The notes beneath the pieces were generated by a model. That model searched no databases, was not told where the DNA came from, and was given only the letters and a program-made list of their open reading frames with translations. The translations under genes were made by a program, and so were the position numbers. Below are positions 4,311 through 64,000 of a stretch of DNA of 64,000 nucleotides, in pieces. The first letter of the stretch is position 1. Each line of letters starts with the position of its first letter. This DNA comes from Psilocybe cubensis (lineage: Eukaryota): assembly GCA_017499595.2 (NCBI GenBank), contig CM039002.1:2232001-2296000 (forward strand). Reading direction: 5' to 3'.

Positions 4311-4619
4311 TCGCTATGCCATGCCACGCTATGCGACGATGCCATGATCACGCTATGCGACGATGAGGATGATCAGGGGAAGGGGTGACGTCATACTTCG
4401 CACGGTGGAGGGAGATGCCGGACGGGAGCTTTATGTGGAGTAGAAGTAGAATTACATACACATACGTACAGTGACTGGACGAGACGAGAACTAGACTGGA
4501 CTAGCTTGCACTGGTGAAAGAAAACTCGAAAAACCAAAACGAAAAACGGAAAACAAGCGGATAACAAGCGGACTATAACTTTTTTTTTTATTGATTGATG
4601 TGTATGGCTTTGTGCTGAG

Positions 4620-17628: not shown

Positions 17629-17836
17629 TGGTGGTGGTTCGAGGTAAAGGGACAGGGTTCGGCCGAATATGGAGATGGACATAAATGAGTTATCACGCAA
17701 TCCGCGTCTGTATCGCCGTGGTCACTCTCACCCGGGCACAACATTATACAAATCTCTACTTCCAGCGAATACATAACTCTCCCTCTTTTTTCTTCCTTCC
17801 AGACCCAGAACTCGGCAATTCTTTCTCTTAGGATCT

Positions 17837-22452: not shown

Positions 22453-23717
22453 TCACTCATCGTCGGACTCAATGCAGTCCTCGGACGAAAGACCTTCTGG
22501 GACCTCTTTTGGCCTGAGATGAACCACTCTGGTCTCTTTGATCTCAAGATGCCTTGATCCAAAATATCTGGGAGTCTCGAAGCACCATCTAAAATAGAAA
22601 GGATGTCAAAGAGCTGCCGAGTGGGTATTGAAGACGATAGAGACGTACTCAATGTTACCAATCATCCAATAGCCAACAAAGTCGATGAACTGCAAGGCCT
22701 CTGGACCCAGAGACGGTGAAATCTGGCTTTTTGCAGAAATGTAGTCAGAGACAAATTCGCCGCAGCGCTCGCCAATGTAATCCGCGGTCTCTTGCAGGTT
22801 CGTTCCGTTTTCGTTCATCAATATGCTGACGATGTTATTGCCGGCTAGGCCTTTGGATTGCTCCATATCGTAGGAGTAGATATCCTGAATTTGGGAGAAA
22901 CGTTAAGTAATATTCCAAAGCACAGGAACCGAGCGTTATGACGTACATTGGCCCAGCAGACTTGATCACAGGCGGCCCAGTATGCCTTCATGAACATCTC
23001 GTCTTCGTAGACCTCATCGGCCAAGTCGATGCCCAGGATATATTCCACAAGAGCGAAGCAGAGGAGAACGGCGCTGTTTTGTCGACGAAGGGGGATGTAT
23101 GAAGCAAGGTCTAGGAGCTCAGAACGTTCTCGAAGCTCGGCCTCCTCTCCCACACAGGCCGTGTATGACTCGCAAAGATCAATAAAGCGTTTTGTGTTTC
23201 TGGGACCGGCTAGGCGGGTGAAGCGAGCCATGAATCTAAAAGAAATAGGTTTGTTAGAGCTTGCCTGGAGCCCTCGATCTTATGGCCAACTTACTCTTTC
23301 GTGACCTTAGCAAGGATAGAGCCGTCGTCCCAGTCAGGATATTTCATGGCTTTGAAAAACACTTGTCCGGTTTCCCGGGCACCCTTTCCATTTTGCTCGT
23401 CGCTAACTTCATCTACCACAAACAACAGGTTGACCTGGATAAAAATAAGTACACTCTATATTTAATCCATCACTTAAATCACTCACGAAGTCGCAGGTCG
23501 TTCGCAATTGCTCGCGTCCAGCGTACCAGTAGACGTGTGAGCAAAGCAGTTCATTTTGACCTTGAATAAACTCGGCTCGCTTTCTATCTGTGAAGATGTC
23601 GTAGCCGTTGATCCAGGCCCTTGACTCTGCCGCCGCCTCTTTGTAGTAAGGGTTTGTTGCGTCCTTCAAAGGGCACGACTCGAGGAGATCAGGGAGGACG
23701 AATTGTTCAGTAGACAT
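22453..23717 (-). CDS. Sesquiterpene synthase, Cop4/cubebol-synthase-like (clade II), 5 exons
   Basis: [12 protein letters not shown] aspartate-rich motif, NSE triad [19 protein letters not shown]; ends [15 protein letters not shown] at 23812-23817 on the minus strand. Resembles P. cubensis CubA from memory only. Confidence 0.92.
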
Positions 23718-39813: not shown

Positions 39814-41127
39814 GTTCAATATGCAGTGCCAATTATCGAGATGTATCGACGAGTAAGTTTTGTTGCTGATGAAGACAAATTCCAATATGGGAGAACGTTC
39901 TGATTATGTGCGACTGAGTTTCAAGCACAACACATAAAGCACTTGTATTTCATCAGCTCTAGTCGTAGACATTTGTGTAGAGTAAAAGCCCACATGAAGT
40001 GCGTTAAATCAGACGGCCTGAAGCTGAAGTTGAAGGAGATATGTGATAGAACAGAATGAAAGATTCCAATTTCCAAAGGCCGCGCCGCAAGTTCGACTGT
40101 CGTCACTATTTTGACCGTCACGTGTAGCCCCTATTCATGGCGACGCGTCAACTCGCAATATATGATTGTCAGGATTCTGTTTTGCTCAAGATGAAAGACA
40201 ATTGAAACAGAATTATGAGTATTAGTAAATAATCCAATATTCCCTTGAGAGTCCTAGTTAATCGGCCCATGTATATCACGTTAAACAAGTGGTATGTATG
40301 CAACCCCAGTTTTTCGAACACAAAAACTAAAAATGCGAAAGGCGATTATACTTATTCTTAGTAGATACCCAAGTAGGATCCTGCCAGCATGCAAATAAAA
40401 ATACAATGTCCCATCCAGAATAATAAGAATAATCAACGACGTCTCGCATTCCCTCTGGGATCAATAGCCCATACACTACGGGCATTGGCCTATTTATTCT
40501 GTCTATTAATCGTTGAATAAATGTCAAAAAAATCAATAATTTCTTCCATATTTGATCATCGATTTCATTGTAATTAAATTTGAAATTTAATCTGCAATTT
40601 AGTCGTGTTTCTTCCAATGTTTAAATCGCAGATTTTATCCACGATTTCAGTCAGTTTAAATGAGGAAGAAATGACAAACGAAATGAGACATATCTTACTC
40701 GGGTCCCGTTTGATATTTAAATAAATGAATAATAAAAATTAAACTTGATGGGTTAAAAATATTATGTTAAACAATATAATTATATTATATAATCCAGTAA
40801 TATATTCAGTTTGTGACGAGTGACATATAGTGCCAAGAATTCATACCCCAAGTGAGGAGGCGCTTAACTGAATGAAGGTTAAGACATACATACACCAAGA
40901 GGTGGGAGATTTGATTAGTTTAGTCACTTCGTACTTTACAAGTGTATGTATAACGTTATTATATTTCTATCAAGTCCTAAAAAACGACGCTCGTGCGGGA
41001 TCGAACGCACAATCTTACAAACAAAAGGGAATGAAACGAATGACTTTACCACTGCACCATACAGGTTACAGGTATTTGTATTTCAGATGGTTCAAGTCCC
41101 TAAGACGCCCAGCAGAGTTCTAAAAAT

Positions 41128-46183: not shown

Positions 46184-46251
46184 GTTATATCAGCAGGACT
46201 ACGGCGAGCTTGAAATTGAATCGAACTTTGCTTCGGCTGGTATATTAATGG

Positions 46252-46703
46252 TGTCAGGGTTTCTCCAGTTTCCCCTCTTTATCTTCACAGAATTATCTTA
46301 TCCTTTCATTATCTTATCAATTATCTGATTAGATAGTTTATTTCTTTCATCACAGCCTTCTTGCTCCACTTCTTTCTAGTAAATTCTATATGATTCCTAG
46401 TCTTACTCATCCTTTTTCTATATGATGTCACTTTTATTCTTTAACCTTCCTTTATGATGTAATGTAGGGAATATTCTAGAATAGCTGTAGAGTATAAATA
46501 CTGGACTTGTAGGTAGCTGTAGCTTCAGCTTCAATCTCTTAGGATATCCACTATCTTTGGTGTGATCTCTTAGAACCATTGAATCTCTCTCACTCTCTTA
46601 TTCTCTCTTTGCTCTCTTACTCTCCCTCTGCTCTCTCTCTCTCTCTCTCTTGCTTAATATTTGTTGGTGGCCTTGTCACACTGATTATAGTGTTGCCCTG
46701 ACA
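46252..46703 (+). repeat. 5' LTR of copy 1 (452 bp)
   Basis: Direct repeat of 52177-52628, with one mismatch seen near 46659. TATAAATA at 46493-46500. Confidence 0.95.
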
Positions 46704-47194
46704 GAAGATTGAAGCTCTCTCAAGACAACTCCACCATCTCTCTTTCAACACCAAACTCTTCACCTCTTCAACCTCTTCAACACCATTACCTCAACCTTCT
46801 TCCTCCACTTCCAACCCACCAACCTCTTCATCAACCTCTCCACCAATCTTCTTACCAATCTCTACATCTCCACCAATCTTCAACATCCTCCTCAAGACCT
46901 TTCCTCAAGACCTTTGGCTCATCATTTTTCCTACTCTCTGTTGTGTGCTGTGTGTGAACTTAGTAGATAGGGATACCAACTGTTGGGGCAGACACAGTCC
47001 TACTAGTGTTCTGTTTTTGGTGGTCTAGGAAATATCCAGTAACCCTGTGATCCTAGGTTTAGAGCCCTGAGTGGTGTGACAACTGGGTATCCAGTAGATA
47101 GATATTTTTTTAGAATACTTAGTATAGTTTCAAGGGCACTTTCAGTAGATAGCTTCTCCCACACACACATCAGAGAGCCTACCTAACCCTACCC

Positions 47195-48298
47195 ATGGAC
47201 ATGGACCCCTCCCAATTGCCTCCCACCACTCCTTCTGTGGAAGAGCTCATGCATCAGGTCCAGCTCCGTACCCAAGAGTTGAATTTTCTTAGACAGCAGC
47301 AGCAGTCATTATCCACTCCACCACACCCTCAGCAACCAGTCAGTCAGTCACCATCACCACCACCACCACCTGCTGCTCTAGATATTCACTCTTTCCCTAC
47401 CCCTCATGTTGCCCCTTCCTGTTCACACTCTGCCATTAAAGTCTCACCTCCAGATCCATTTGATGGTTCTATGGAGAAGGCAGAAAACTTCCTCAGTTAG
47501 CTTAAATTATATTTCTATGGGAAAGGGATTACAGATGACTTTCAGAAAGTTATTTGTGCTCTATCTCATATGAAAGGAGGTACTGCTGGGAAGTGGGCAT
47601 ATGAGAAGACTAAAGTAATAGACAATGCTCAGTCCCAAGAAGGTCTTTGGGCTGACTTTGTTTATGAATTTAGGGAAGTGTTTGCAGATCCAGACCCCTC
47701 CAACACAGCTAAGCATAAAATGCACATGCTCAAGCAAGGCAGACAGACTGCTGATGAGTATGTTGCTAGCTTCAGGGCTCTGATCTCAGATACTGGGTAT
47801 AATGATGCTGCTTTGGTAGACCAATTCAAGGCTGGGCTTAATGAAAATCTCAGGAATGCAGTCTACTATGTTCCTGACATGCCCAAAACCTTAGATGGAT
47901 AGATTAAATGGAGTACTAGGCTAGATAGGCAGTGGAGACAGAGTGAGGCCTTTACCAAGTCTCTCTCCCCCTCCTCTTCTTCTCCCTTCCTTAAAGCCCC
48001 AACTCCCAAGGCTGTTCCTAAGCCTACTCCAAATCCTCCAGTCTTTTCCAATAGCAGCTCAAGGACCTTTGGTGCTCAGGCAAAGCAACCAGATGTAGTT
48101 CCCATGGAGGTTGACTCTGGATGGAAGTCAGTTAGGCCAATTGTTTGCTTCAAGTGCAGAAAGCCTGGTCATAAGGCTGTAAACTGCAGGTCATCAGTTA
48201 ACATCAATGCTATGACCCATGAAGAACTGGCTGACTACTTTGGGAAATTAATCTTGGAAGGCAAGGAGCAGAAAGATGAGGAAAAGAAAAATTTTTAG
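47195..48298 (+). pseudogene. gag of copy 1 with two premature TAG stops
   Basis: Colinear with the intact gag at 56406-57512. CAG>TAG at 47498-47500 and TGG>TAG at 47900-47902. Confidence 0.93.
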
Positions 48299-48306
48299 AA
48301 GCACCA

Positions 48307-51300
48307 TTGGTGAAAGACATGTCCCAATGGAATAGATTTAATGTACTAGAAAATGAAATTGACAGACTTGATTCTCAGTCTTCAGATTCTGGTGCAGAAA
48401 TCATGTCTTCTTCTTCCTCTCTTTCTACCTTCCCTGAAAAGATCTACATCCTCAACCATAATCCTAAAACCTCTACCCATTTGTCTGTCATCTTAAAGAC
48501 AATGGACACAGAGAAAAGGTTATCTGTTGATGCTTTGCTTGATTCTGGAGCTACTGGCCTCTTTCTGCATTCTGGTTTTGTGAAGTATCATAATCTCAAC
48601 ACAAGGAAACTTCCTAGGGCCATTCCAGTCTACAATGTTGATGGTACTCTCAACAAGAGTGGCTCTATCCATGAGGAAGTAGACTTAATTATGGTACACA
48701 AAAACCATACAGAAAGGGCCACCTTTGCTGTTTGTGACTTGGGAGACAAATCTGCTATCATTGGACATACTTGGCTTTGGCACCATAATCCAGATGTTGA
48801 TTGGAAGACAGGGGATGTCCAGTTTATTAGATGTCCCTCTGACTGCCAAATGGAAGCCAAAAGAGCCAGAAGAAAGAGGCAGAGAATAGCTGCAGTCAAA
48901 AGGAGGAAACTCCCTCAATTTGATGAAGAAGAAGATGATTCTATTGAAGATTCTTCTGATTCTGAGATTGAGCCTGAGGATAGAATTTTTATCTCATACC
49001 TTCATCCTCAGAAGCAGTCTATTAATGCTACTTCTACTATGTCTCAAAGATTAGCAGAAGAGTCTCATCAGCAAGCTGATTCTCCTAAGAAAACCTTTGA
49101 AGAAACTGTCCCTAAGCACTATCACCAGTTTAAAGGTGTTTTTTCAAAGGAATCTTTTGATAGGCTACCAGACAGAAAGCCTTGGGATCATGCTATTGAG
49201 CTGAAACCTGGTTCTGAACCTTACAGATCCAAGATTTATCCTCTTTCTCCCAATGAACAAAAGGAACTTGATGCCTTTTTAGAGGAAAATCTGAAGTCTG
49301 GCAGGATTAGACCCTCCAAGTCACCTATGGCCTCCCCTGTATTCTTTGTCAAGAAGAAGGATGGATCTCTTAGGCTTGTCCAGGACTATAGGAAACTGAA
49401 TGAAATGACCATCAAGAACTCCTACCCCCTTCCATTGATTTCTGACATCATCACCAAACTCAGCAAAGCCAAATACTTCACCAAACTTGATGTTAGGTGG
49501 GGATTTAACAATGTCAGAATCAAAAAGGGAGATGAATGGAAAGCAGCCTTTAGAACCAATAGAGGGCTGTTTGAACCATTGGTCATGTTCTTTGGTTTAA
49601 CCAATAGTCCTGCTACCTTCCAAACTATGATGAATGATATCTTTATTGAGCTCATTGATGGAAATGTTGTCATTGTCTACATGGATGACATTTTAATTTT
49701 CACTGAGACTCTTGATCATCATAGAGAGGTAGTCAAGCAAGTTCTGCAAATCTTAGAACAGAACAAACTCTACCTTAAAGCAGAGAAATGTGAATTTGAA
49801 AAGGAAAAGATTGAATATCTTGGACTAATCATTTCACAAGGCAGGATTGAGATGGATCCTGTCAAGGTAGAGGGAGTTTCTAAATGGCCTGAACCTGAAA
49901 ATGTCAAGGATGTCCAATCATTCTTGGGATTTGTTAATTTTTATAGAAGGTTCATAGAGGATTTTGCAGACATTGCTAAGCCCCTTCATGAATTGACAAA
50001 GAAAGGAACAGTCTGGAGATGGAGTCTTAGACAGCAGGAAGCCTTTGACCAGTTAAAGAAGAAAGTCACTTCTTCACCTGTCTTGATTTTCCCTGATGAT
50101 AACAAGCCATATAAAGTTGAAGCAGACAGTTCAGATTATGCTACTGGGGCTGTTTTATCTCAGGAAGGATCAGATGGGAAATGGCATCCTGTAGCCTTTA
50201 TGTCTAAGAGTCTATCTGAAGTAGAAAGGAATTATGAGATCCATGACAAAGAGATGCTGGCTATTATCAGAGCACTAGATGAATGGAGACATTATCTTGA
50301 AGGAACCCAACATTCCTTTGAGATTTGGACAGACCACAAAAACTTAGAGTACTTTATGGTTGCCCAAAAGCTCAGCAGAAGGCAAGCCAGATGGTCACTC
50401 TTCCTGTCCAGATTTGATTTTACTCTTCATCATAGGCCTGGTAAAAGATCTCTTAAGCCAGATGCTTTGTCTAGGAGACCAGATCATAAAAAGGGAGAGA
50501 ATGATAACCAAAATGTAGTTCTCCTCAAACCTTCCTACTTTAAAATCCAGGCTCTCAAGCAGGGTCATGCTACCATTACTGGTGCAGAAAATGATCTTCT
50601 TAAGAAGATTAGAGAAGCTAAGGAGATGGATGAAAAGGTGGTCAAGGCAGTTCAGGAGCTCAAGAAATCTTCTACCAAGAAGATTGAAGGACAGGAATGG
50701 TCAGAAGAACAAGGCCTTATTCTCTACAGGGGGAAGGTGTATGTTCCCAAGGACAAAGATCTTAGAAGAAAGATTGTGGAACTGCACCATGATGCCTTCA
50801 TTGCTGGACATCCAGGGAAATGGAAGACAATTGAGCTAGTCTCTAGGAATTATTGGTGGCCAGGAATGTCACATTTTATTGCAGCCTATACCAGAGGTTG
50901 TGATAGATGCAACAGAACCAAAACCTTTCCAGCCAAACCTCTTGGCCTTTTAATTCCTATTGAGATTCCCTCTGATGTCTGGCAATGCATCTCTGTGGAC
51001 TTTATTATGGGGTTACCAGAATGTCAAGGGTATAATGCCATTATGGTGGTTGTGGATAGACTTAGTAAAATGATCCACATTATCCCTACTACAGATGAAG
51101 TCACTTCTGAAGGGACAGCCAGACTATACAGAGATTATGTCTGGAAACACCATGGCTTACCCATTAAAATTCTGTGTGATAGAGGTCCACAGTTTGTCTC
51201 AAGGTTTATGAAAGAACTCAACTCAATACTTGGTATCCAGACAGCCTCATCTACAGCCTACCATCCCCAAACTGATGGTCAGACTGAAAGAGTTAACCAA

Positions 51301-52176
51301 GAAATTGAGCAGTATCTTAGACTCTTTATAAACCATAGACAAGATGATTGGGTTGAATGGTTAGCTCTAGCTGAATTCTCTTATAACAATAGAGTTCAGG
51401 CTTCAACCAGGCAGACACCATTCATGCTCAATAATGGCAGACATCCCAGAATGGGCACTGAACCCCTTAGAGATAGTAAAATGGACACTGTGGATACCTT
51501 TGTGAAAAATATGGAAGAAGCCAGGAAAGAAGCAGAGTCTGCACTTAGAAAAGCTGCTGATGATATGGCTAAATTCTATAATAGACACAGAGGTACTCCA
51601 ACTCAGTACAAAGTTGGGGATTTGGTATGGTTGGATGGCAAGGACCTTAAAACTGATAGGCCCTCCAAGAAATTGGATGATAAAAGATATGGGCCTTACA
51701 AAATTACCAAAGTTATTAGCCCTAATGCCTATGAGCTTAAGCTGCCATCTACCATGAAAATCCATCCAGTGTTCAATGTGGTTAAACTTCTACCTTATCA
51801 CCCAGATATTGTAGGAAGAAAGCCTCCTTCTAGACCACCACCTGTCATTCAAGGAGAAAATCCTGAGTGGGAAGTTGAATTTATCAAGGACAGCAGACTT
51901 TTTAGAAACAAACTTCAATATTTGGTCAAGTGGAAGAACTATCCTAATGAAGAATGCACTTGGGAGCCTGCAGAGCATTTGAAAAATGCTTCTAAGGCTA
52001 TCAAGGACTTCCATGCCAAACATCCTTCAGCACCTAGAAGGATTTCTGCTGTGACCTTTGATAGACTTTCTTTCACTCCTATTATTAACTTTACTGAACC
52101 TCCTCCTCTTCTTAAACCCTCTAAACTAACCCATCCATGTGCACATTGTGGAAAATGTGCCTTAGAGAGGGGGTGA
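48307..52176 (+). CDS. pol polyprotein (protease, RT, RNase H, integrase, chromodomain), copy 1
   Basis: LLDSGAT, YMDD, ADSSDYATG, HHDAFIAGH..CDRC, DDE core, GPY, WEVEFIKDSR..YLVKWKNY..CTWEP. Probably reached by a -1 frameshift. Confidence 0.96.
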   Translation: MVKDMSQWNRFNVLENEIDRLDSQSSDSGAEIMSSSSSLSTFPEKIYILNHNPKTSTHLSVILKTMDTEKRLSVDALLDSGATGLFLHSGFVKYHNLNTRKLPRAIPVYNVDGTLNKSGSIHEEVDLIMVHKNHTERATFAVCDLGDKSAIIGHTWLWHHNPDVDWKTGDVQFIRCPSDCQMEAKRARRKRQRIAAVKRRKLPQFDEEEDDSIEDSSDSEIEPEDRIFISYLHPQKQSINATSTMSQRLAEESHQQADSPKKTFEETVPKHYHQFKGVFSKESFDRLPDRKPWDHAIELKPGSEPYRSKIYPLSPNEQKELDAFLEENLKSGRIRPSKSPMASPVFFVKKKDGSLRLVQDYRKLNEMTIKNSYPLPLISDIITKLSKAKYFTKLDVRWGFNNVRIKKGDEWKAAFRTNRGLFEPLVMFFGLTNSPATFQTMMNDIFIELIDGNVVIVYMDDILIFTETLDHHREVVKQVLQILEQNKLYLKAEKCEFEKEKIEYLGLIISQGRIEMDPVKVEGVSKWPEPENVKDVQSFLGFVNFYRRFIEDFADIAKPLHELTKKGTVWRWSLRQQEAFDQLKKKVTSSPVLIFPDDNKPYKVEADSSDYATGAVLSQEGSDGKWHPVAFMSKSLSEVERNYEIHDKEMLAIIRALDEWRHYLEGTQHSFEIWTDHKNLEYFMVAQKLSRRQARWSLFLSRFDFTLHHRPGKRSLKPDALSRRPDHKKGENDNQNVVLLKPSYFKIQALKQGHATITGAENDLLKKIREAKEMDEKVVKAVQELKKSSTKKIEGQEWSEEQGLILYRGKVYVPKDKDLRRKIVELHHDAFIAGHPGKWKTIELVSRNYWWPGMSHFIAAYTRGCDRCNRTKTFPAKPLGLLIPIEIPSDVWQCISVDFIMGLPECQGYNAIMVVVDRLSKMIHIIPTTDEVTSEGTARLYRDYVWKHHGLPIKILCDRGPQFVSRFMKELNSILGIQTASSTAYHPQTDGQTERVNQEIEQYLRLFINHRQDDWVEWLALAEFSYNNRVQASTRQTPFMLNNGRHPRMGTEPLRDSKMDTVDTFVKNMEEARKEAESALRKAADDMAKFYNRHRGTPTQYKVGDLVWLDGKDLKTDRPSKKLDDKRYGPYKITKVISPNAYELKLPSTMKIHPVFNVVKLLPYHPDIVGRKPPSRPPPVIQGENPEWEVEFIKDSRLFRNKLQYLVKWKNYPNEECTWEPAEHLKNASKAIKDFHAKHPSAPRRISAVTFDRLSFTPIINFTEPPPLLKPSKLTHPCAHCGKCALERG

Positions 52177-52628
52177 TGTCAGGGTTTCTCCAGTTTCCCC
52201 TCTTTATCTTCACAGAATTATCTTATCCTTTCATTATCTTATCAATTATCTGATTAGATAGTTTATTTCTTTCATCACAGCCTTCTTGCTCCACTTCTTT
52301 CTAGTAAATTCTATATGATTCCTAGTCTTACTCATCCTTTTTCTATATGATGTCACTTTTATTCTTTAACCTTCCTTTATGATGTAATGTAGGGAATATT
52401 CTAGAATAGCTGTAGAGTATAAATACTGGACTTGTAGGTAGCTGTAGCTTCAGCTTCAATCTCTTAGGATATCCACTATCTTTGGTGTGATCTCTTAGAA
52501 CCATTGAATCTCTCTCACTCTCTTATTCTCTCTTTGCTCTCTTACTCTCCCTCTGCTCTCTCTCTCTCTCTCTCTTGCTTAATCTTTGTTGGTGGCCTTG
52601 TCACACTGATTATAGTGTTGCCCTGACA
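52177..52628 (+). repeat. 3' LTR of copy 1
   Basis: Begins immediately after the pol stop TGA and is followed by TSD AATGG. Confidence 0.95.
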
Positions 52629-55600
52629 AATGGGTAGAGGAGGGAGACGCAGTTCGATAACCTTTGTTCCACGGGCGACAATGCATCACGAAGGTCACGC
52701 GTACAGGCTTGTCATGGCTAACAATATGACAAGATTCCAACGCGATCCGCCAACGCCTCGAAATCAGGGGCCGTGGGAAATCGACGTTTTTGCTCTTGGA
52801 GGCCATGATGCAGATGACTTGTGGGCGATATTGAGTTGAAGAACGTGATAGTATGTTTTGACGTAACATTGTCAGCAGGTAAAATGGTTGTGAACACTGA
52901 GGAACATTGTGAAGGAAAGCAAAGTCATAAGCTTGCTGGATCAACCGTGAGAACTCAGTTGGATCTAATCTTATCTCTCCGGCACACGTCGACGCGCAGA
53001 CCATACTTCGCTTTAGCATCCAGGTGTGCGGCATGTGCCCGCCCCCGCATATCCACCTTGCAAACCGCTGCTCTTGCGCTTCCCGACGCTGCTCTTTGCG
53101 GCTCTTCTGGTTTTGTTGCTGTTGCCGTTTGTTGCCGTTGCTGAGCCTGAGTCTGTGCTTGCTGCTGCTGATACTGTGCACTAAACCCCAATCCCGAACT
53201 AGCAGATGACGGCGAGCCAGGCATCGTCACACTCGCGCCAACACCCGCGCTGCCCAACGGCAAAATCAAAGGCGACGACATCGTAGATCCACCGCCCATC
53301 GTGATCCTCCTTCGTTTCGCGAGCTTGTCACGTGTCCTCGTCGAACCGGCACTCCCACTCCCACCAGCACCACTCCCCGCCGCCAACGGGCCAAAGCCCA
53401 GTCCAAGACCCAACCGCCCAGCGCCAAACGGACTGCTCTTTATCACATTGCCATAATCCGGGGATCGATGCGGACGACACAGAAGGTGGCGGGGCATCGG
53501 CGATGCTGCCAGTGCTGGAGATGGACGCGCTGAGGGTGTGCAGGTGCCTGCGCAGAAGGTGCTCGACCTGGAAGGGAAAAGAAAACCCCTCACAGCAGGC
53601 GGCCTCGGCGCCCTCCTCCTGCCCATAAACCGCGGGTGTGGGCTGGGCACATCGGCGCTCATACTCGTACTCCTCGCATCGTCATCCGAATCCTCTTCTG
53701 AAGAGGATTCCTCCGACGACTCGTCAAAAATCGCTTCATCACAATCATAAAACACCACTTTGCCCTGCAAAATATCCAAAGCGCTCGGTCCAGCACCCGC
53801 ACCCCACGTACCCACCAACCCCTCTTCCTCTTCTCCTTCCTACCTCGTAGAGGTGGCCTAGGAAGGGCGCAGGAGGGGATGAGGAGGGTTGAGAGAGGCA
53901 GAGGGGGCCTAGGAAGGGTACAGGGAGGGTACAGGAGGTTTGAGGAGGTCTGAGAGATGCTTTCCCTTTGTGTCTATATCTCCACTCCCTTGCTTGCTGT
54001 TCTTTTTATATATATATTCATAATTTCGTTATCATATTTTGGACTACTTGCCTATCCTAATTTATAAATCTCACGCGTGCGATCGATATCCTAGACACCA
54101 AAACAGATATATATTTGACATACGGGGCAAGAAAAAAAAACGTGTACGTCTAAGAATATCGGTCAGAAAGCGGTCAGTTCCAGGTTACAAAAGACTCACA
54201 AATGCATTTGTAACTACAAACCTGGGGCACCATTAAATGAGGGTACCACAGAAACATGAGCGTTGATCAAGGCCTGAGCCCGTTGAGATGCCGAAGCCTG
54301 CAGCTTGCGACTAGGAGGGGTCCCGCGCAACATTGTTTTCCATTGCACTCTTGTCAAGGGCTGGGCCTGGCGAGTGAGGATGGCCTCCACACGTTCCAGA
54401 TACCAGGCTTCGTTGGTAGGGGTCCATTCGACCCACTGCGTTCCGTTCTGTGTGGCAGGTACCTTCCACAAGTTGGCTGGAGGAAACCAAGATTTCACGG
54501 TGGTTTGTCCTGTCTGAGCTAAGAAATATCGTTTTAGTATTTTGATTTCGGAAGGGTCAAGTACAAAATACCTGTGTACAACGTGTATGTCCCACAAATA
54601 ATAGCCAGCTCATTTTCCGTAAGTTGGTCGTCACAATAGAACCAATTTGTGTTGCCTGCAGATAGCACGAAACCTTGACGATTCTCCAGGATTTCCCGCG
54701 AGGGGCCATTGAGTGCTCGGTCCACACTCAGGTATTCACTGGCTATCCTCCCAATCAATCCCCCCATCAGTAAAGCGGCCCGACCATGGGGTTGGTGTTT
54801 GATTATGTTCTCGCATTGAAACCGATATGTTTCGAAGTCATCGAGGCCAAAAGTATATCCCGTAGGCCGCACAGATCGAGGAGTATATTGTTGCTGCACA
54901 GTAGTGCTTCGTCCTGACATGTGAAGGCCCGTTACAGTACGACAGGGCACTCCTCTCTCAAGTAGCATTTTGGCCAGCGTGTCAATGCGTGCCCATGAGT
55001 GCTCCAGCTTGAGGCGACAGACGCAGAGAGCAATTTCCGCTGTCTCAACAGCCAATTTCCAGTCAACATTTTCTGCTCGAGGTTCTTCAAAAACATAAAA
55101 GTTTGGGTGTGGTCGGTGTATTTGGGAGAGATCCAAAATATGAGAAAGTGCAGTTACACTGTAGCTGTTGAGATCTGACAGTGAGGCCGGCATTTCCACA
55201 CTGGTCGGTTCAATACAAGCGAAGTAAAATTGATAAATTCCTTGCTGATCGCCCAGACCAACCTCTTTGGTATGTGCGCCTAGAAAACCGAAGGTTTCGA
55301 CTAATTCATGCCAATCCGAAGGTGCCAATGGTAGATTCGTATTGGTGTTGGGCAGGTACCCATATGCTTGTCGCAGGCATCTGACCATGTTGTAGTCAGG
55401 GGTCATCCACGTTCCAATGGTCTTGGGCCTGATTTGTTGTTCCAAACCAGCCGCATCTGGCTGTCAGGGTTTCTCTAGTTTTTCCTCTTTATCTTCACAG
55501 AATTATCTTATCCTTTCATTATCTTATCAATTATCTGATTAGATAGTTTATTTCTTTCATCACAGCCTTCTTGCTCCACTTCTTTCTAGTAAATTCTATA

Positions 55601-55915
55601 TGATTCCTAGTCTTACTCATCCTTTTTGTATATGATGTCACTTTTATTCTTTAACCTTCCTTTATGATGTAATGTAGGGAATATTCTAGAATAGCTGTAG
55701 AGTATAAATACTGGACTTGTAGGTAGCTGTAGCTTCAGCTTCAATCTCTTAGGATATCCACTATCATTGGTGTGATCTCTTAGAACCATTGAATCTCTCT
55801 CACTCTCTTATTCTCTCTTTGCTCTTTTACTCTCCCTCTGCTCTCTCTCTCTCTTTCTCTTGCTTAATCTTTGTTGGTGGCCTTGTCATACTGATTATAG
55901 TGTTGCCCTGACAGA

Positions 55916-55926
55916 AGATTGAAGCT
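55916..55926 (+). promoter_or_regulatory. Self-priming primer binding site AGATTGAAGCT
   Basis: Exact reverse complement of AGCTTCAATCT inside the LTR (55737-55747), about 27 nt after the TATA box. Copy 1 has the same pair at 46706-46716 and 46527-46537. Confidence 0.75.
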
Positions 55927-56405
55927 CTCTCAAGACAACTCCACCATCTCTCTTTCAACACCAAACTCTTCACCTCTTCAACCTCTTCAACACCATTACT
56001 TCAACCTTCTTCCTCCACTTCCAACCCACCAACCTCTTCATCAACCTCTTCACCAATCTTCTTACCAATCTCTACATCTCCACCAATCTTCAACATCCTC
56101 CTCAAGACCTTTCCTCAAGACCTTTGGCTCATCATCTTTCCTACTCTCTGTTGTGTGCTGTGTGTGAACTTAGTAGATAGGGATACCAACTGTTGGGGCA
56201 GACACAGTCCTACTAGTGTTCTGTTTTTGGTGGTCTAGGAAATATCCAGTAACCCTGTGATCCTAGGTTTAGAGCCCTGAGTGGTGTGACAACTGGGTAT
56301 CCAGTAGATAGATATTTTTTTTAGAATACTTAGTATAGTTTCAAGGGCACTTTCAGTAGATAGCTTCTCCCACACACACATCAGAGAGCCTACCTACCCC
56401 TACCC

Positions 56406-57512
56406 ATGGACATGGACCCCTCCCAATTGCCTCCCACCACTCCTTCTGTGGAAGAGCTCATGCATCAGGTCCAGCTCCTTACCCAAGAGTTGAATTTTCT
56501 TAGACAGCAGCAGCAGTCATTATCCACTCCACCACACCCTCAGCAACCAGTCAGTCAGTCACCATCACCACCACCACCACCACCTGCTGCTCTAGATATT
56601 CACTCTTTCCCTACCCCTCATGTTGCCCCTTCCTGTTCACACTCTGCCATTAAAGTCTCACCTCCAGATCCATTTGATGGTTCTATGGAGAAGGCAGAAA
56701 ACTTCCTCAGTCAGCTTAAATTATATTTCTATGGGAAAGGGATTACAGATGACTTTCAGAAAGTTATTTGTGCTCTATCTCATATGAAAGGAGGTACTGC
56801 TGGGAAGTGGGCATATGAGAAGACTAAAGTAATAGACAATGCTCAGTCCCAAGAAGGTCTTTGGGCTGACTTTGTTTATGAATTTAGGGAAGTGTTTGCA
56901 GATCCAGACCCCTCCAACACAGCTAAGCATAAAATGCACATGCTCAAGCAAGGCAGACAGACTGCTGATGAGTATGTTGCTAGCTTCAGGGCTCTGATCT
57001 CAGATACTGGGTATAATGATGCTGCTTTGGTAGACCAATTCAAGGCTGGGCTTAATGAAAATCTCAGGAATGCAGTCTACTATGTTCCTGACATGCCCAA
57101 AACCTTGGATGGATGGATTAAATGGAGTACTAGGCTAGATAGGCAGTGGAGACAGAGTGAGGCCTTTACCAAGTCTCTTTCCTCCTCCTCTTCTTCTCCC
57201 TTCCTTAAAGCCCCAACTCCCAAGGCTGTTCCTAAGCCTACTCCAAATCCTCCAGTCTTTTCCAACAGCAGCTCAAGGACCTTTGGTGCTCAGGCAAAGC
57301 AACCAGATGTAGTTCCCATGGAGGTTGACTCTGGATGGAAGTCAATTAGGCCAATTGTTTGCTTCAAGTGCAGAAAGCCTGGTCATAAGGCTGTAAACTG
57401 CAGGTCATCAGTTAACATCAATGCTATGACCCATGAAGAACTGGCTGACTACTTTGGGAAATTAATCTTGGAAGGCAAGGAGCAGAAAGATGAGGAAAAG
57501 AAAAATTTTTAG
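56406..57512 (+). CDS. gag (retrotransposon gag domain, CCHC zinc knuckle), copy 2
   Basis: PDPFDG, LKQGRQTADEY, VPMEVD, CFKCRKPGHKAVNC. Confidence 0.94.
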   Translation: MDMDPSQLPPTTPSVEELMHQVQLLTQELNFLRQQQQSLSTPPHPQQPVSQSPSPPPPPPAALDIHSFPTPHVAPSCSHSAIKVSPPDPFDGSMEKAENFLSQLKLYFYGKGITDDFQKVICALSHMKGGTAGKWAYEKTKVIDNAQSQEGLWADFVYEFREVFADPDPSNTAKHKMHMLKQGRQTADEYVASFRALISDTGYNDAALVDQFKAGLNENLRNAVYYVPDMPKTLDGWIKWSTRLDRQWRQSEAFTKSLSSSSSSPFLKAPTPKAVPKPTPNPPVFSNSSSRTFGAQAKQPDVVPMEVDSGWKSIRPIVCFKCRKPGHKAVNCRSSVNINAMTHEELADYFGKLILEGKEQKDEEKKNF

Positions 57513-57544
57513 AAGCACCATTGGTGAAAGACATGTCCCAATGG
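57503..57544 (+). promoter_or_regulatory. -1 programmed ribosomal frameshift signal (A AAT TTT plus stem-loop)
   Basis: Slippery heptamer 57503-57509 just before the gag TAG, 8-nt spacer, CCATTGG (57518-57524) pairing with CCAATGG (57538-57544). The same signal is at 48289-48330. Confidence 0.75.
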
Positions 57545-60500
57545 AATAGATTTAATGTACTAGAAAATGAAATTGACAGACTTGATCCTCAGTCTTCAGA
57601 TTCTGGTGCAGAAATCATGTCTTCTTCTTCCACTCTTTCTACCTTCCCTGAAAAGATCTACATCCTCAACCATAATCCTAAAACCTCTACCCATTTGTCT
57701 GTCATCTTAAAGACAATGGACACAGAGAAAAGGTTATCTGTTGATGCTTTGCTTGATTCTGGAGCTACTGGCCTCTTTCTGCATTCTGGTTTTGTGAAGT
57801 ATCATAATCTCAACACAAGGAAACTTCCTAGAGCCATTCCAGTCTATAATGTTGATGGTACTCTCAACAAGAGTGGCTCTATCCATGAGGAAGTAGACTT
57901 AATTATGGTACACAAAAACCATACAGAAAGGGCCACCTTTGCTGTTTGTGACTTGGGAGACAAATCTGCTATCATTGGACATACTTGGCTTTGGCACCAT
58001 AATCCAGATGTTGATTGGAAGACAGGGGATGTCCAGTTTATTAGATGTCCCTCTGACTGCCAAATGGAAGCCAAAAGAGCCAGAAGAAAGAGGCAGAGAA
58101 TAGCTGCAGTCAAAAGGAGGAAACTCCCTCAATTTGATGAAGAAGAAGATGATTCTATTGAAGATTCTTCTAATTCTGAGATTGAGCCTGAGGATAGAAT
58201 TTTTATCTCATACCTTCATCCTCAGAAGCAGTCTATTAATGCTACTTCTACTATGTCTCAAAGATTAGCAGAAGAGTCTCATCAGCAAGCTGATCCCCCT
58301 AAGAAAACCTTTGAAGAAACTGTTCCTAAGCACTATCATCAGTTTAAAGGTGTTTTTTCAAAGGAATCTTTTGATAGGCTACCAGACAGAAAGCCTTGGG
58401 ATCATGCTATTGAGCTGAAACCTGGTTCTGAACCTTACAGATCCAAGATTTATCCTCTTTCTCCCAATGAACAAAAGGAACTTGATGCCTTTTTAGAGGA
58501 AAATCTGAAGTCTGGCAGGATTAGACCCTCCAAGTCACCTATGGCCTCCCCTGTATTCTTTGTCAAGAAGAAGGATGGATCTCTTAGGCTTGTCCAGGAC
58601 TATAGGAAACTGAATGAAATGACCATCAAGAACTCCTACCCCCTTCCATTGATTTCTGACATCATCACCAAACTCAGCAAAGCCAAATACTTCACCAAAC
58701 TTGATGTTAGGTGGGGATTTAACAATGTCAGAATCAAAAAGGGAGATGAATGGAAAGCAGCCTTTAGAACCAATAGAGGGCTGTTTGAACCATTGGTCAT
58801 GTTCTTTGGTTTAACCAATAGTCCTGCTACCTTCCAAACTATGATGAATGATATCTTTATTGAGCTCATTGATGGAAATGTTGTCATTGTCTACATGGAT
58901 GACATTTTAATTTTCACTGAGACTCTTGATCATCATAGAGAGGTAGTCAAGCAAGTTCTGCAAATCTTAGAACAGAACAAACTCTACCTTAAAGCAGAGA
59001 AATGTGAATTTGAAAAGGAAAAGATTGAATATCTTGGACTAATCATTTCACAAGGCAGGATTGAGATGGATCCTGTCAAGGTAGAGGGAGTTTCTAAATG
59101 GCCTGAACCTGAAAATGTCAAGGATGTCCAATCATTCTTGGGATTTGTTAATTTTTATAGAAGGTTCATAGAGGATTTTGCAGACATTGCTAAGCCCCTT
59201 CATGAATTGATAAAGAAAGGAACAGTCTGGAGATGGAGTCTTAGACAGCAGGAAGCCTTTGACCAATTAAAGAAGAAAGTCACTTCTTCACCTGTCTTGA
59301 TTTTCCCTGATGATAACAAGCCATATAAAGTTGAAGCAGACAGTTCAGATTATGCTACTGGGGCTGTTTTATCTCAGGAAGGATCAGATGGGAAATGGCA
59401 TCCTGTAGCCTTTATGTCTAAGAGTCTATCTGAAGTAGAAAGGAATTATGAGATCCATGACAAAGAGATGCTAGCTATTATCAGAGCACTAGATGAATGG
59501 AGACATTATCTTGAAGGAACACAACATTCCTTTGAGATTTGGACAGACCACAAAAACTTAGAGTACTTTATGGTTGCCCAAAAGCTCAGCAGAAGGCAAG
59601 CCAGATGGTCACTCTTCCTGTCCAGATTTGATTTTACTCTTCATCATAGGCCTGGTAAAAGATCTCTTAAGCCAGATGCTTTGTCTAGGAGACCAGATCA
59701 TAAAAAGGGGGAGAATGATAACCAAAATGTAGTTCTCCTCAAACCTTCCTACTTTAAAATCCAGGCTCTCAAGCAGGGTCATGCTACCATTACTGGTGCA
59801 GAAAATGATCTTCTTAAGAAGATTAGAGAAGCTAAGGAGATGGATGAAAAGGTGGTCAAGGCAGTTCAGGAGCTCAAGAAATCTTCTACCAAGAAGATTG
59901 AAGGACAGGAATGGTCAGAAGAACAAGGTCTTATTCTCTATAGGGGGAAGGTGTATGTTCCCAAGGACAAAGATCTTAGAAGAAAGATTGTGGAACTGCA
60001 CCATGATGCCTTCATTGCTGGACATCCAGGGAAATGGAAGACAATTGAGCTAGTCTCTAGGAATTATTGGTGGCCAGGAATGTCACATTTTATTGCAGCC
60101 TATACCAGAGGTTGTGATAGATGCAACAGAACCAAAACCTTTCCAGCCAAACCTCTTGGTCTTTTAATTCCTACTGAGATTCCCTCTGATGTCTGGCAAT
60201 GCATCTCTGTGGACTTTATTATGGGGTTACCAGAATGTCAAGGGTATAATGCCATTATGGTGGTTGTGGATAGACTTAGTAAAATGATCCACATTATCCC
60301 TACTACAGATGAAGTCACTTCTGAAGGGACAGCCAGACTATACAGAGATTATGTCTGGAAACACCATGGCTTACCCATTAAAATTCTGTGTGATAGAGGT
60401 CCACAGTTTGTCTCAAGGTTTATGAAAGAACTCAACTCAATACTTGGTATCCAGACAGCCTCATCTACAGCCTACCATCCCCAAACTGATGGTCAGACTG

Positions 60501-61390
60501 AAAGAGTTAACCAAGAAATTGAGCAGTATCTTAGACTCTTTATAAACCATAGACAAAATGATTGGGTTGAATGGTTAGCTCTAGCTGAATTCTCTTATAA
60601 CAATAGAGTTCAGGCTTCAACCAGGCAGACACCATTCATGCTCAATAATGGCAGACATCCCAGAATGGGCACTGAACCCCTTAGAGATAGTAAAATGGAC
60701 ACTGTGGATACCTTTGTGAAAAATATGGAAGAAGCCAGGAAAGAAGCAGAGTCTGCACTTAGAAAAGCTGCTGATGATATGGCTAAATTCTATAATAGAC
60801 ACAGAGGTACTCCAACTCAGTACAAAGTTGGGGATTTGGTATGGTTGGATGGCAAAGACCTCAAAACTGATAGGCCCTCCAAGAAATTGGATGATAAAAG
60901 ATATGGGCCTTACAAAATTACCAAAGTTATTAGCCCTAATGCCTATGAGCTTAAGCTGCCATCTACCATGAAAATTCATCCAGTGTTCAATGTGGTTAAA
61001 CTTCTACCTTATCACCCAGATATTGTAGGAAGAAAGCCTCCTTCTAGACCACCTCCTGTCATTCAAGGAGAAAATCCTGAGTGGGAAGTTGAATTTATCA
61101 AGGACAGCAGACTTTTTAGAAACAAACTTCAATATTTGGTCAAGTGGAAGAACTATCCTAATGAAGAATGCACTTGGGAGCCTGCAGAGCATTTGAAAAA
61201 TGCTTCTAAGGCTATCAAGGACTTCCATGCCAAACATCCTTCAGCACCTAGAAGGATTTCTGCTGTGACCTTTGATAGACTTTCTTTCACTCCTATTATT
61301 AACTTTACTGAACCTCCTCCTCTTCTTAAACCCTCTAAACTAACCCATCCATGTGCACATTGTGGAAAATGTGCCTTAGAGAGGGGGTGA
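57521..61390 (+). CDS. pol polyprotein (protease, RT, RNase H, integrase, chromodomain), copy 2
   Basis: 1289-aa ORF with the same motifs as copy 1, in the -1 frame relative to gag. Confidence 0.96.
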   Translation: MVKDMSQWNRFNVLENEIDRLDPQSSDSGAEIMSSSSTLSTFPEKIYILNHNPKTSTHLSVILKTMDTEKRLSVDALLDSGATGLFLHSGFVKYHNLNTRKLPRAIPVYNVDGTLNKSGSIHEEVDLIMVHKNHTERATFAVCDLGDKSAIIGHTWLWHHNPDVDWKTGDVQFIRCPSDCQMEAKRARRKRQRIAAVKRRKLPQFDEEEDDSIEDSSNSEIEPEDRIFISYLHPQKQSINATSTMSQRLAEESHQQADPPKKTFEETVPKHYHQFKGVFSKESFDRLPDRKPWDHAIELKPGSEPYRSKIYPLSPNEQKELDAFLEENLKSGRIRPSKSPMASPVFFVKKKDGSLRLVQDYRKLNEMTIKNSYPLPLISDIITKLSKAKYFTKLDVRWGFNNVRIKKGDEWKAAFRTNRGLFEPLVMFFGLTNSPATFQTMMNDIFIELIDGNVVIVYMDDILIFTETLDHHREVVKQVLQILEQNKLYLKAEKCEFEKEKIEYLGLIISQGRIEMDPVKVEGVSKWPEPENVKDVQSFLGFVNFYRRFIEDFADIAKPLHELIKKGTVWRWSLRQQEAFDQLKKKVTSSPVLIFPDDNKPYKVEADSSDYATGAVLSQEGSDGKWHPVAFMSKSLSEVERNYEIHDKEMLAIIRALDEWRHYLEGTQHSFEIWTDHKNLEYFMVAQKLSRRQARWSLFLSRFDFTLHHRPGKRSLKPDALSRRPDHKKGENDNQNVVLLKPSYFKIQALKQGHATITGAENDLLKKIREAKEMDEKVVKAVQELKKSSTKKIEGQEWSEEQGLILYRGKVYVPKDKDLRRKIVELHHDAFIAGHPGKWKTIELVSRNYWWPGMSHFIAAYTRGCDRCNRTKTFPAKPLGLLIPTEIPSDVWQCISVDFIMGLPECQGYNAIMVVVDRLSKMIHIIPTTDEVTSEGTARLYRDYVWKHHGLPIKILCDRGPQFVSRFMKELNSILGIQTASSTAYHPQTDGQTERVNQEIEQYLRLFINHRQNDWVEWLALAEFSYNNRVQASTRQTPFMLNNGRHPRMGTEPLRDSKMDTVDTFVKNMEEARKEAESALRKAADDMAKFYNRHRGTPTQYKVGDLVWLDGKDLKTDRPSKKLDDKRYGPYKITKVISPNAYELKLPSTMKIHPVFNVVKLLPYHPDIVGRKPPSRPPPVIQGENPEWEVEFIKDSRLFRNKLQYLVKWKNYPNEECTWEPAEHLKNASKAIKDFHAKHPSAPRRISAVTFDRLSFTPIINFTEPPPLLKPSKLTHPCAHCGKCALERG

Positions 61391-64000
61391 TGTCAGGGTT
61401 TCTCTAGTTTTTCCTCTTTATCTTCACAGAATTATCTTATCCTTTCATTATCTTATCAATTATCTGATTAGATAGTTTATTTCTTTCATCACAGCCTTCT
61501 TGCTCCACTTCTTTCTAGTAAATTCTATATGATTCCTAGTCTTACTCATCCTTTTTGTATATGATGTCACTTTTATTCTTTAACCTTCCTTTATGATGTA
61601 ATGTAGGGAATATTCTAGAATAGCTGTAGAGTATAAATACTGGACTTGTAGGTAGCTGTAGCTTCAGCTTCAATCTCTTAGGATATCCACTATCATTGGT
61701 GTGATCTCTTAGAACCATTGAATCTCTCTCACTCTCTTATTCTCTCTTTGCTCTTTTACTCTCCCTCTGCTCTCTCTCTCTCTTTCTCTTGCTTAATCTT
61801 TGTTGGTGGCCTTGTCATACTGATTATAGTGTTGCCCTGACACTGGCGCATCCATGGATAAGGCCGTGTCTGCACTTCGACCCTGAACAAATTCCGCAGG
61901 GGACGCCATCTCGCAATCTTTGCCATAGTCCATTTCCCTTCTTGGCGAGGGGCTCTGTCGAACACGTCGTTGCCGTGGACGAGACCGTGTTGAGCTTTCT
62001 GGAAGTGTCGTGTCGAGGCTGCGCCTGCGTCGACCAAGGGATGTTGGTGGTGGGGTGGTAGGTCGGCCCCGCTTACAACTCCCCTTGGATTCATCTGGGG
62101 TTATTGGCGACATGTGGGTCGAGGTAGCAACTGGCGGACCGTGGAGAGATGAAGGGCCTGAGCAAGACACAGAGGATGACAGTGGCATTACCAACATTGT
62201 GTCAACTGTGATACTCGTCAAACCACCCGAGTCGGTTGTCGTTCCTACTGTCATCGGGGTGGGGTCCGGTTCAATAGTGTCGTACCATGGCGTATCTTCC
62301 CGATCGTACGGGGCCGGCTGAGGGCTGGGGTCACGTCTGATTATTTTTGCGGGACGTGATAGTCTGCCGCGCCCAGGCTGGCGTGTCTCGTAACGCCCTC
62401 TGTGCGGTTCATGGTGGCCCTTCTGCACAAATGCACCAGCCAACTCCGAGGGTGGAAGCAAATGCTTACAAAAGTCCCATTCATTCTTGACTCCGTTATA
62501 GACCTTTTGGTGAGCTCCAAGCGCGGTCTCCTCCCGTTCATGTGCCGACTTGGCTATGTGTTGGCGCAGGTAAACACTGGACCCCTCGGTGGATACTAGA
62601 GTTTTCCAAACAAACACCTTAGTTTGATTGATGGGCGGGTCTGTCTCACGGTTCAACCGTATTATCCTCTCTTCTTCAGTCTCTGTGGCCAAAATTTTCT
62701 GCCGCTCCCTGACCCGCGCAGCCCAGTATGCATCCCAGTCATCATGTACTGACGAGAGCAGCCTTAGGTTTCCATGTGGCAATTCAATCATGTGCAGCGT
62801 AGGCAGGTTAGCACTATCAATGGCGAGTTTGCGCTGTTCCTCGTCTTTCTGTTGTAGTGCAGCCTCCATTTCTTCGAATGGTCTGGACATGTATCTATCC
62901 AGTGCCTTGGGGTCATGGGCAAAATGGTTGCTCAGGATAGAGTACACCAAAGTTCGCGAATACTTGTCTCCAAGGACCTTCATGGTTAGCCCTTCGGTCG
63001 GATGAACATGGCTGAAGAATTTACGAGCAAAAGCGGCTGCGAAAGAGACGTCCATGGACTCAAATAACTCAGTCAACAGCTGAGCCAACAGGTCATGCGG
63101 GGGCTGAAGGTGTGGATTCACATTGAGATGAGTAACAATGAACTCCTCTTCCTGTATGCGCCATGGATAATATACTGGAATGGAGTGCTCCAGAAACCAG
63201 TCGACAGGGGGGCGTGTCGGGTGGGTGCTAGTCCAATCATAGACAATACCAGCTCGCGGTGTTTTGGCATCGTATGAATAGACATTGGAGTTGTAAAATC
63301 CATCCAGCCATGCTTCTGTAATTTCTGGGTGTTCGGAGCGCAGCCTGTGATGCCATGCTGGGACGGGACTTCGAGGATCATGTTTGATATGTCTTGAATG
63401 AACCTCTCGACGACTTTGGGCGCAGAGATACGACAGGTACCCCATCCATAGTATGAAAGCATTCCGGCTGGCATTGATACTGCGGTAGGCGGCTTCCTCA
63501 GTGCGATGTTTAAGCATGTACCCCAAGCTTTGCGGGACTGGTGGTGGCGTCCCCGGTATGCGACACCACAGGCGCACTTTTTCAGCCACCAGGATTAAAT
63601 TGACCTCGCAGTCGTACCATTTTCGTTGTTCCAGCGTGTCCATGGCCCAGGTAGGCGGTTGCTTTGGCACCCGTGGGTTCATCTGGCCATCCCTATGGCA
63701 AAATAACTTTGGACTCCAGCACAGAAATTCGAACGGCAAGGACACAAAAGAGGGCGACAGTGGAAAGAAAGCCATCCATCCATATGAATCATGCCACCGA
63801 ATGGGTTGCTTGAATCCCTCCAGTTCTAGGTCGTGCAGGGACGCATCTGTCGATGTGAATTTGCGTGCAAAGACCTCTTTAAAGTCCTGGTTGGGAGGGG
63901 GGATGAGGACCACTCACTTGGAGTTGGGTGACGCATAGATTGTGCCCTTCTGAATGAATGCCGACCCTTCCGACCAATTGATGGGTGCTTGGTTTGGCAT

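Follow-up and report, generated by a model that had tools for sequence, protein, structure and literature searches.

An intact chromovirus without CpG dinucleotides in Psilocybe cubensis

Element structure

We analyzed a 64,000-nucleotide stretch of the Psilocybe cubensis genome (GenBank assembly GCA_017499595.2, contig CM039002.1, positions 2,232,001 to 2,296,000 of the forward strand). This whole stretch is called the window below, and window positions are used throughout. It contains two direct copies of one long terminal repeat (LTR) retrotransposon, on the same strand and separated by 2.8 kb. Their borders were set by repeat finding and extension. Copy 1 (46252–52628, + strand) is a full-length chromovirus of 6377 bp with one CpG dinucleotide and a defective gag gene. 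Copy 2 (55462–61842, + strand) is full-length and intact, with 6381 bp and no CpG. Perfect 5-bp target-site duplications (TSDs) flank both copies: AATGG at 46247–46251, repeated at 52629–52633, and CTGGC at 55457–55461, repeated at 61843–61847.

All four LTRs are 452 bp long and lie on the + strand. In copy 1 the 5′ LTR (46252–46703, TG...CA) has one mismatch in 452 to the 3′ LTR (52177–52628), and in copy 2 the 5′ LTR (55462–55913, TG...CA) is identical to the 3′ LTR (61391–61842). A polypurine tract at 61377–61387 (+) ends 3 nt 5′ of the 3′ LTR of copy 2.

The gag gene of copy 2 occupies an open frame at 56364–57512 and runs from its first ATG at 56406 to 57512 (+). The protein matches the Pfam families Ty3_capsid, Retrotrans_gag and zf-CCHC, the last at its CCHC knuckle. 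The pol gene (57494–61390, +; 1298 aa) encodes protease, reverse transcriptase, RNase H, integrase (H2C2, rve and SH3) and a chromodomain. Pfam matches within Pol are RVT_1 (357–518), RT_RNaseH (606–712), Integrase_H2C2 (825–882), rve (902–996) and PF00385 Chromo (1197–1246, E = 2.5e-15). No Pfam protease match is among the listed hits for Pol; a DSG protease motif is visible in the translation. With its LTRs and TSDs, this order of Pol domains, a chromodomain C-terminal to the integrase, and a Gag with capsid and CCHC domains, the element is a Ty3/gypsy chromovirus (Metaviridae).

In copy 2, pol lies in the −1 frame relative to gag, and an AAATTTT heptamer (57503–57509, +) stands directly 5′ of the gag TAG. 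The heptamer looks like a canonical slippery site, and a −1 frameshift there is therefore the inferred route from gag into pol. In copy 1, pol (48280–52176, +) is open over 1298 aa, and gag (47153–48298, +) is broken into three frames by CAG>TAG at 47498 and TGG>TAG at 47901. Copy 1 also has small indels.

The LTR of copy 2 contains a TATA box, TATAAATA (55703–55710, +), as a putative promoter. A putative transcript 5′ end that could act as self-primer, AGCTTCAATCT (55737–55747, +), begins 34 nt past the start of the TATAAATA box, at LTR positions 276–286. It is the exact complement (11/11) of the 11-nt primer-binding site (PBS) AGATTGAAGCT (55916–55926, +), which begins 2 nt past the 5′ LTR. 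When RNA is folded from this inferred start, its 5′ end pairs with the PBS and a second stem forms, in both the minimum free energy and the centroid folds (z = −2.0). The arrangement thus appears to be a self-primed PBS of the Tf1 type, with the transcript start a prediction. Self-priming would free the PBS from matching a host tRNA.

CpG absence

Base composition predicts 268 CpGs in copy 1 and 264 in copy 2; the counts are 1 and 0. The sole CpG of both copies, at 47267–47268 (+) in copy 1, reads CT in copy 2. The deficit is specific to CpG, since the observed-to-expected ratio (o/e) of GpC in the element is 0.81. TpG (1.21) and CpA (1.14) are moderately raised, and TpA stands at 0.69. Host DNA makes up the other 51,244 bp of the window and holds 3072 CpGs (o/e 1.00, vs 0.00 in the element). 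The longest CpG-free gap in this host DNA is 178 bp, compared with 6395 and 5381 bp over the elements. On the two sides of copy 1 the nearest host CpG is 18 and 20 bp away; for copy 2 the distances are 10 and 5 bp. GC content is 0.41 in the element and 0.49 in the host.

Every codon context in which a CpG could arise is affected. In gag and pol of copy 2, arginine is encoded by AGA (59) and AGG (33), for 92 AGR codons and no CGN, and no TCG, CCG, ACG or GCG codon is used. Codons ending in C or T always end in T before a G (178 T, 0 C); before other bases both endings are common (310 T, 231 C). We permuted synonymous codons 2000 times, drawing on the codons that the element itself uses, none of which contains CpG. 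The shuffled pol genes contained 68.1 ± 5.8 CpGs (minimum 48 in 2000 shuffles) and the shuffled gag genes 20.1 ± 3.1, where none is observed. Non-coding parts are equally empty, with 13.1 CpGs expected in the LTR, 20.8 expected in the leader and none seen. CpG has been purged in every codon context and in the non-coding parts.

These counts bear out what a preliminary description of this DNA, made from the letters and their open reading frames, had reported: a single CG at 47267–47268 of copy 1 with CT in copy 2, arginine written as AGA or AGG, no NCG codons, CpG-rich host flanks, and intact gag and pol with identical LTRs in copy 2. It had made no mention of the two premature stops in the gag of copy 1. 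It had also proposed comparing CpG o/e between element and host genes, and the two differ clearly.

Repeat-induced point mutation of the ascomycete type was considered as the source of the composition and rejected, because TpA o/e (0.69) and CpA o/e (1.14) show neither a CpA>TpA bias nor an excess of TpA.

Signs of recent activity

Few or no mismatches separate the LTRs of each copy (0/452 in copy 2, 1/452 in copy 1), and both TSDs are intact. Where the LTRs of copy 1 and copy 2 differ, the difference stands in both LTRs of a copy and so predates its insertion. If copy 2 is excised together with one TSD, a host frame of 997 aa is restored on the minus strand, joined from a downstream part (54537–55461) and an upstream part (61848–63913). 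Paralogues are 1075–1085 aa long (1075–1079 aa in P. cubensis), and the gene model at this locus, which the frame next to copy 2 matches at 100%, is truncated to 629 aa. By inserting, copy 2 broke up a coding sequence.

The two copies differ by 52 substitutions and 4 indel columns. In pol, 15 single changes are synonymous and 6 non-synonymous, for a non-synonymous-to-synonymous ratio (pN/pS) of 0.11. This departs from neutrality in a binomial test (P = 9e-7) and under a transition-only null (P = 4e-4). The lineages of the two copies diverged under selection for function. No TG<>CG or CA<>CG change separates the copies, where 5.8 would be expected if polarity is ignored. The transitions between them are asymmetric on the + strand, with 24 C>T and 7 G>A.

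Raw Illumina DNA reads from an independent sample (X19) were mapped on the element and its flank. Against a mean flank depth of 89, the internal region reached 1499, 16.8 times as much, and the LTR 3977, 44.6 times as much. The family, whose copy number the preliminary description had suggested determining, is thus multi-copy, and the depths suggest about ten solo LTRs in X19 beside roughly 17 equivalents of a full-length copy. Loose read ends at the LTR borders disagree with one another, which indicates many different flanks. Likeness is at least 99% for 38,747 of the 70,971 family reads and 95–99% for another 27,953.

The X19 reads also reveal variation within the family. Fifteen reads support an internally deleted derivative that skips 1387 bp at 58238–59626, and two 13-nt insertion alleles after 56098 occur in about 23% of reads. 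Family variants are again asymmetric on the + strand (107 C>T and 68 G>A; 58 T>C and 35 A>G). In the host frame to the left of copy 2 (54481–55388), 27 reads carry a 576-bp skip and 9 other letters, and full-depth loose ends stand at 55354 and 55388. The gene disrupted by copy 2 is therefore structurally polymorphic between X19 and the window.

At least half of the sampled words of the element were found in 11 of 16 rows of sequence runs, from 8 studies. The nearest protein cluster (89% identity) includes at least 6 copies of 1253 aa on separate contigs of Psilocybe cf. subviscida. None of the runs listed with matching sequence is an RNA run. Two runs whose RNA type is only a guess yielded short contigs, one of 153 nt in X21 and six of 152–231 nt at depth 2–5 in X14, which say nothing about expression. 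Run X13, from another organism, contains a relative about 88% identical over window positions 58446–61390, at a contig depth of about 3000–4600. The 38 differences listed for it include no change that makes a CpG, and two neighboring ones together turn TG into CA; with most differences unlisted, this is a hint only.

Related elements

We compared the element with 96 related loci among the matches listed, 74 on JGI metagenome contigs and 22 from IMG/VR. Their Pol proteins are 27–60% identical to that of the Psilocybe element (40–60% for the metagenome loci, 27–53% for IMG/VR), and CpG o/e over their whole loci spans 0.02–1.22. A frame of at least 1000 aa is kept by 11 of the 96, all with CpG o/e of 0.70–1.22, and in the 14 with an o/e under 0.3 the longest frame is 177–530 aa. 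Among the 65 loci that are 4.5 kb or longer, frame length increases with CpG o/e (Spearman rho 0.66, p = 3e-9). Because low CpG goes with broken frames in these relatives, the intact zero-CpG Psilocybe element is an outlier; no intact CpG-free element was found among the 96 relatives listed.

Low CpG can reflect decay or recoding, and arginine codons tell the two apart. An alignment of 13 Pol sequences has 23 invariant arginine positions, at which we read the codons of the relatives. The Psilocybe element has AGR at 23 of 23. The 24 loci of one clade, type B, have 253 CGN, 96 AGR, 90 TGN, 69 CAN and 8 other codons at these positions. TGN and CAN, both deamination products of CGN, thus make up 31% at these essential positions, hardly any other replacement occurs, and their share is larger in loci with lower CpG o/e (rho −0.67, p = 3e-4). 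The codons directly display how CpG deamination kills type B chromovirus copies, with CGN>TGN and CGN>CAN as the prevailing lesion. The 37 loci of a second clade, type A, have 637 AGR among 841 codons, along with 67 CGN, 33 TGN, 51 CAN and 53 others; the functional ancestors of type A had already shifted to AGR.

Three relatives from the metagenome and IMG/VR sets are nearly CpG-free and dead: L095 (o/e 0.02), L094 (0.05) and L053 (0.07), with longest frames of 177–211 aa. L053 (1–5500), L095 and L094 contain 1, 4 and 8 CpGs and have AGR at 13–19 of 18–23 invariant arginine positions, and so derive from ancestors that were recoded before. The signature of decay, namely C>T and G>A changes at former CpGs, broken frames and arginines changed to Cys, Trp, stop, His or Gln, is absent from copy 2.

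A FastTree phylogeny was built from a query-anchored alignment of Pol positions 300–1180 with 93 rows, comprising the element, 75 loci and 17 database proteins; 21 loci with less than 70% coverage were left out. The Psilocybe element groups with eight matches that are available only as proteins (support 1.0). This Psilocybe clade joins the CpG-rich type B (0.985), apart from the CpG-poor, AGR-rich type A (0.987). Its position implies that the full purge in the Psilocybe element was independent of the partial purge in type A.

Other features of the window

Outside the two elements, a Pfam scan of 115 frames of at least 110 aa gave host genes only, of ordinary fungal kinds, and no other transposable element (TE) in the window. 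The split host frame (54537–55461 and 61848–63913, − strand) belongs to a Psilocybe protein family whose members are about 1080 aa long and carry PF28437 as a precomputed domain; our Pfam scan of its two halves gave no match. Exons of a gene fusing cystathionine beta-lyase with a GHMP/mevalonate kinase lie at 17777–20622 (+). The cystathionine beta-lyase exon is 99% identical to a Psilocybe cubensis protein, and fused two-domain homologues of about 900–930 aa occur across Agaricomycetes. An exon of a family 2 terpene synthase lies at 22848–23279 (−). The kilobase at 40001–41000 is AT-rich (GC 0.354, 92 TpA), yet its CpG o/e is 1.21.

The two elements are inserted in the same orientation 2.8 kb apart (46252–61842). 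The older, defective copy 1 might have given rise to chromatin that drew in the chromodomain integrase of copy 2, which we offer as an idea only.

Interpretation

According to a 2026 review (PMC13297926), Basidiomycota use DNMT1-RFD and DNMT5, both present in Agaricomycotina, for methylation in which CG is strongly preferred, in agreement with the view of the preliminary description that mushroom-forming fungi methylate mainly at CpG. CpG-biased C>T change in basidiomycete TEs has been described and put down to methylation with later deamination (PMC3318451; PMC4352252; PMC4014442).

The observations to be explained are the anatomy of the element, its total lack of CpG, purifying selection, its multi-copy state and the death of its relatives by CpG decay. 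The explanation we favor, and consider probable, is that a recently active Psilocybe chromovirus family was fully recoded to zero CpG under the pressure of methylation and deamination. The family would have resided for a long time in Agaricales hosts that methylate repeats at CpG, where methylated CpG would deaminate to TpG and CpA. Silencing, or death through missense and nonsense mutations, would have met lineages that kept CGN arginine codons or other CpGs. Transposition would have continued only in descendants with AGR arginines, NCH codons and T-ending codons before G. The end state presents CG-specific DNA methyltransferases with no substrate, so that CpG methylation is impossible on these copies, and it has no deamination hot spots, which would leave the family intact and mobile.

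AGR cannot be obtained from CGN by deamination, because CGR>AGR needs a C>A transversion. An element that is all-AGR, free of NCG and T-ending before G therefore points to a long sorting of lineages in which fewer CpGs meant less frequent silencing or inactivation. Zero CpG also means no decay by deamination of 5-methylcytosine (5mC), and avoidance of such decay is supported indirectly by the dominance of CGN>TGN/CAN lesions in the sister clade. That host methylation drove the purge is our inference from composition and codon patterns. Likewise, the element may today be unmethylated, expressed and escaping silencing. The preliminary description had proposed a lineage purged of methylation targets yet still active: the purge holds everywhere in the element and several signs of recent activity accompany it, and the escape from silencing stays conjectural.

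Several points weigh against this explanation. Silencing based on chromatin or RNA interference (RNAi) needs no CpG, and the gag of copy 1 has acquired two premature stops (CAG>TAG and TGG>TAG). The CpG o/e of 1.00 in host genes and DNA is uninformative on TE methylation. When polarity is counted, so that only T>C and A>G changes create CpG, about 2.6 CpG-creating changes are expected between the copies against 0 seen, which is not significant (P ~ 0.07). With regard to the age and spread of the CpG-free state, the eight closest relatives (73–89% Pol identity) are known only as proteins.

The main rival is a passive end state without escape, in which hypermutation together with a retrotransposition filter removed the CpGs, to no present advantage, from a family that is silenced by H3K9 methylation or RNAi all the same, and the copies are remains of a past burst. 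The dead near-CpG-free relatives (L095, L094 and L053, at 0.02, 0.05 and 0.07) fit it, as they indicate that CpG loss alone does not keep an element alive, and so do the two stops in the copy 1 gag and the chromodomain on the integrase. Chromodomain integrases target heterochromatin. Against an old burst speak the identical LTRs of copy 2 and its position within a long host frame, as well as the more than half of X19 family reads that are at least 99% alike, which indicate very recent transposition. The pN/pS of 0.11 between the copies speaks likewise for very recent transposition, and we regard this account as unlikely, though it deserves to be taken seriously.

Other routes to the same composition have far less in their favor. 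Selection against CpG could act on RNA, through a host CpG sensor like ZAP or an effect on translation or stability of the genomic RNA. ZAP exerts such pressure on vertebrate retroviruses. Since all parts of an LTR element occur in its RNA, the purge is as compatible with selection on RNA as on DNA; what makes this route very improbable is that the relatives carry the DNA-level signature of 5mC deamination (CGN>TGN and CGN>CAN, on both strands, at invariant arginines) and that host mRNA-coding DNA has a CpG o/e of 1.00, so that CpG-rich RNA is tolerated. A CpG-sensing RNA restriction factor is not known from fungi, though no search aimed at one was made. The family might instead have come by horizontal transfer and still show the composition of a donor with extremely little CpG in its genome, as the lower GC content of the element (0.41 vs 0.49) and its near-identical occurrence under several coded organism labels (the 11 of 16 rows, 8 studies) could suggest. 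We give this little credence: the closest known relatives come from another Psilocybe species, and the pN/pS of 0.11 and the multiple copies indicate continued evolution in this host. To our knowledge, even strongly CpG-depleted genomes keep an o/e well above zero. An assembly or sequencing artefact, such as converted or filtered reads, has a negligible chance of being the cause and was rejected, because the raw X19 reads span the whole element at about 17x the depth of the flank. The flanks, moreover, are CpG-normal to within 5–20 bp of the element ends, and among the 40 of 447 X19 variants listed, five positions carry at ~100% the letter of copy 1 where copy 2 differs.

Recoding under methylation and deamination pressure can be taken a step further, to a 'methylation-invisible' autonomous retrotransposon that has shed all CpGs, in its promoter and its 92 arginine codons too, and primes itself independently of a tRNA-dictated PBS. 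Such an element would be immune to its host's sole DNA-methylation pathway as well as to the CpG decay that kills sister lineages, with type A independently convergent and the whole a general TE counter-strategy. We hold this broader proposal tentatively, as somewhat more doubtful than not. If it is true, CpG shedding would be a convergent counter-strategy of TEs in mushroom-forming fungi, and CpG-free families should make up most of the current transposition there. CpG depletion of TEs is usually read as a scar of silencing or decay, and an intact, selected, CpG-free element would reverse that reading and turn the scar into armour.

As a natural test case, the element can show how much control CG-only methylation has over transposons and which back-up pathways serve the host. 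Methylomes of Psilocybe or other Agaricales are predicted to show unmethylated, expressed and insertion-polymorphic copies beside methylated, CpG-containing families. The invariant-arginine codon test (CGN, AGR or TGN/CAN) separates adapted from decayed low-CpG elements and could be used genome-wide. A CpG-free design rule combined with the native promoter is suggested for stable transgene expression in mushrooms.

Comparison with known systems

The element combines an ordinary chromovirus anatomy with an extreme compositional property that has apparently evolved. It resembles fungal chromoviruses such as the Lyophyllum shimeji 'Tf2 155 kDa protein type 1-like' elements in its TG...CA LTRs, 5-bp TSD, CCHC gag, chromodomain and order of protease, reverse transcriptase, RNase H and integrase, and its Pol is about 60% identical to L. 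shimeji proteins. MarY1 of Tricholoma is a further fungal example. It differs in having no CpG at all from the 11 sampled relatives with a frame of at least 1000 aa (o/e 0.70–1.22). Full-text searches of the literature outside subscription journals turned up no description of a fungal retrotransposon that is whole, intact and free of CpG.

Tf1 of Schizosaccharomyces pombe self-primes, with the transcript 5′ end priming at a PBS next to the 5′ LTR, a mechanism known from Levin's work. The Psilocybe element is a candidate for an arrangement like that of Tf1 and sushi, as its predicted transcript 5′ end complements the PBS beside the 5′ LTR. Tf1 has a single reading frame; in the Psilocybe element, gag and pol lie in separate frames, with a −1 frameshift predicted between them.

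Clutterbuck 2017 (Fungal Genet Biol 104:16) reportedly describes a CG-deficient, hypermutated TE fraction in basidiomycete genomes. As in those TEs, the deficit here is limited to the TE within a CpG-normal host, and TpG and CpA are moderately raised. What has been described for CG-deficient basidiomycete TEs is mutational decay of copies, however, whereas the deficit of the Psilocybe element is total, in an element that is intact, selected and multi-copy. In Microbotryum TEs, according to PMC3318451, TpCpG is scarce at non-synonymous positions. The idea in common is that TEs can lose, as a lineage, the sites at which a hypermutating defence acts, but in Microbotryum the loss is partial and trinucleotide-specific, and in the Psilocybe element it is complete and dinucleotide-wide. 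ONSEN is likewise a retrotransposon without symmetric sites for stable maintenance methylation. In ONSEN this applies to the LTR promoter only, in a host that also has CHH methylation, whereas here it extends over all 6.4 kb of the element, and the host belongs to a clade in which methylation is reported to be almost exclusively at CG.

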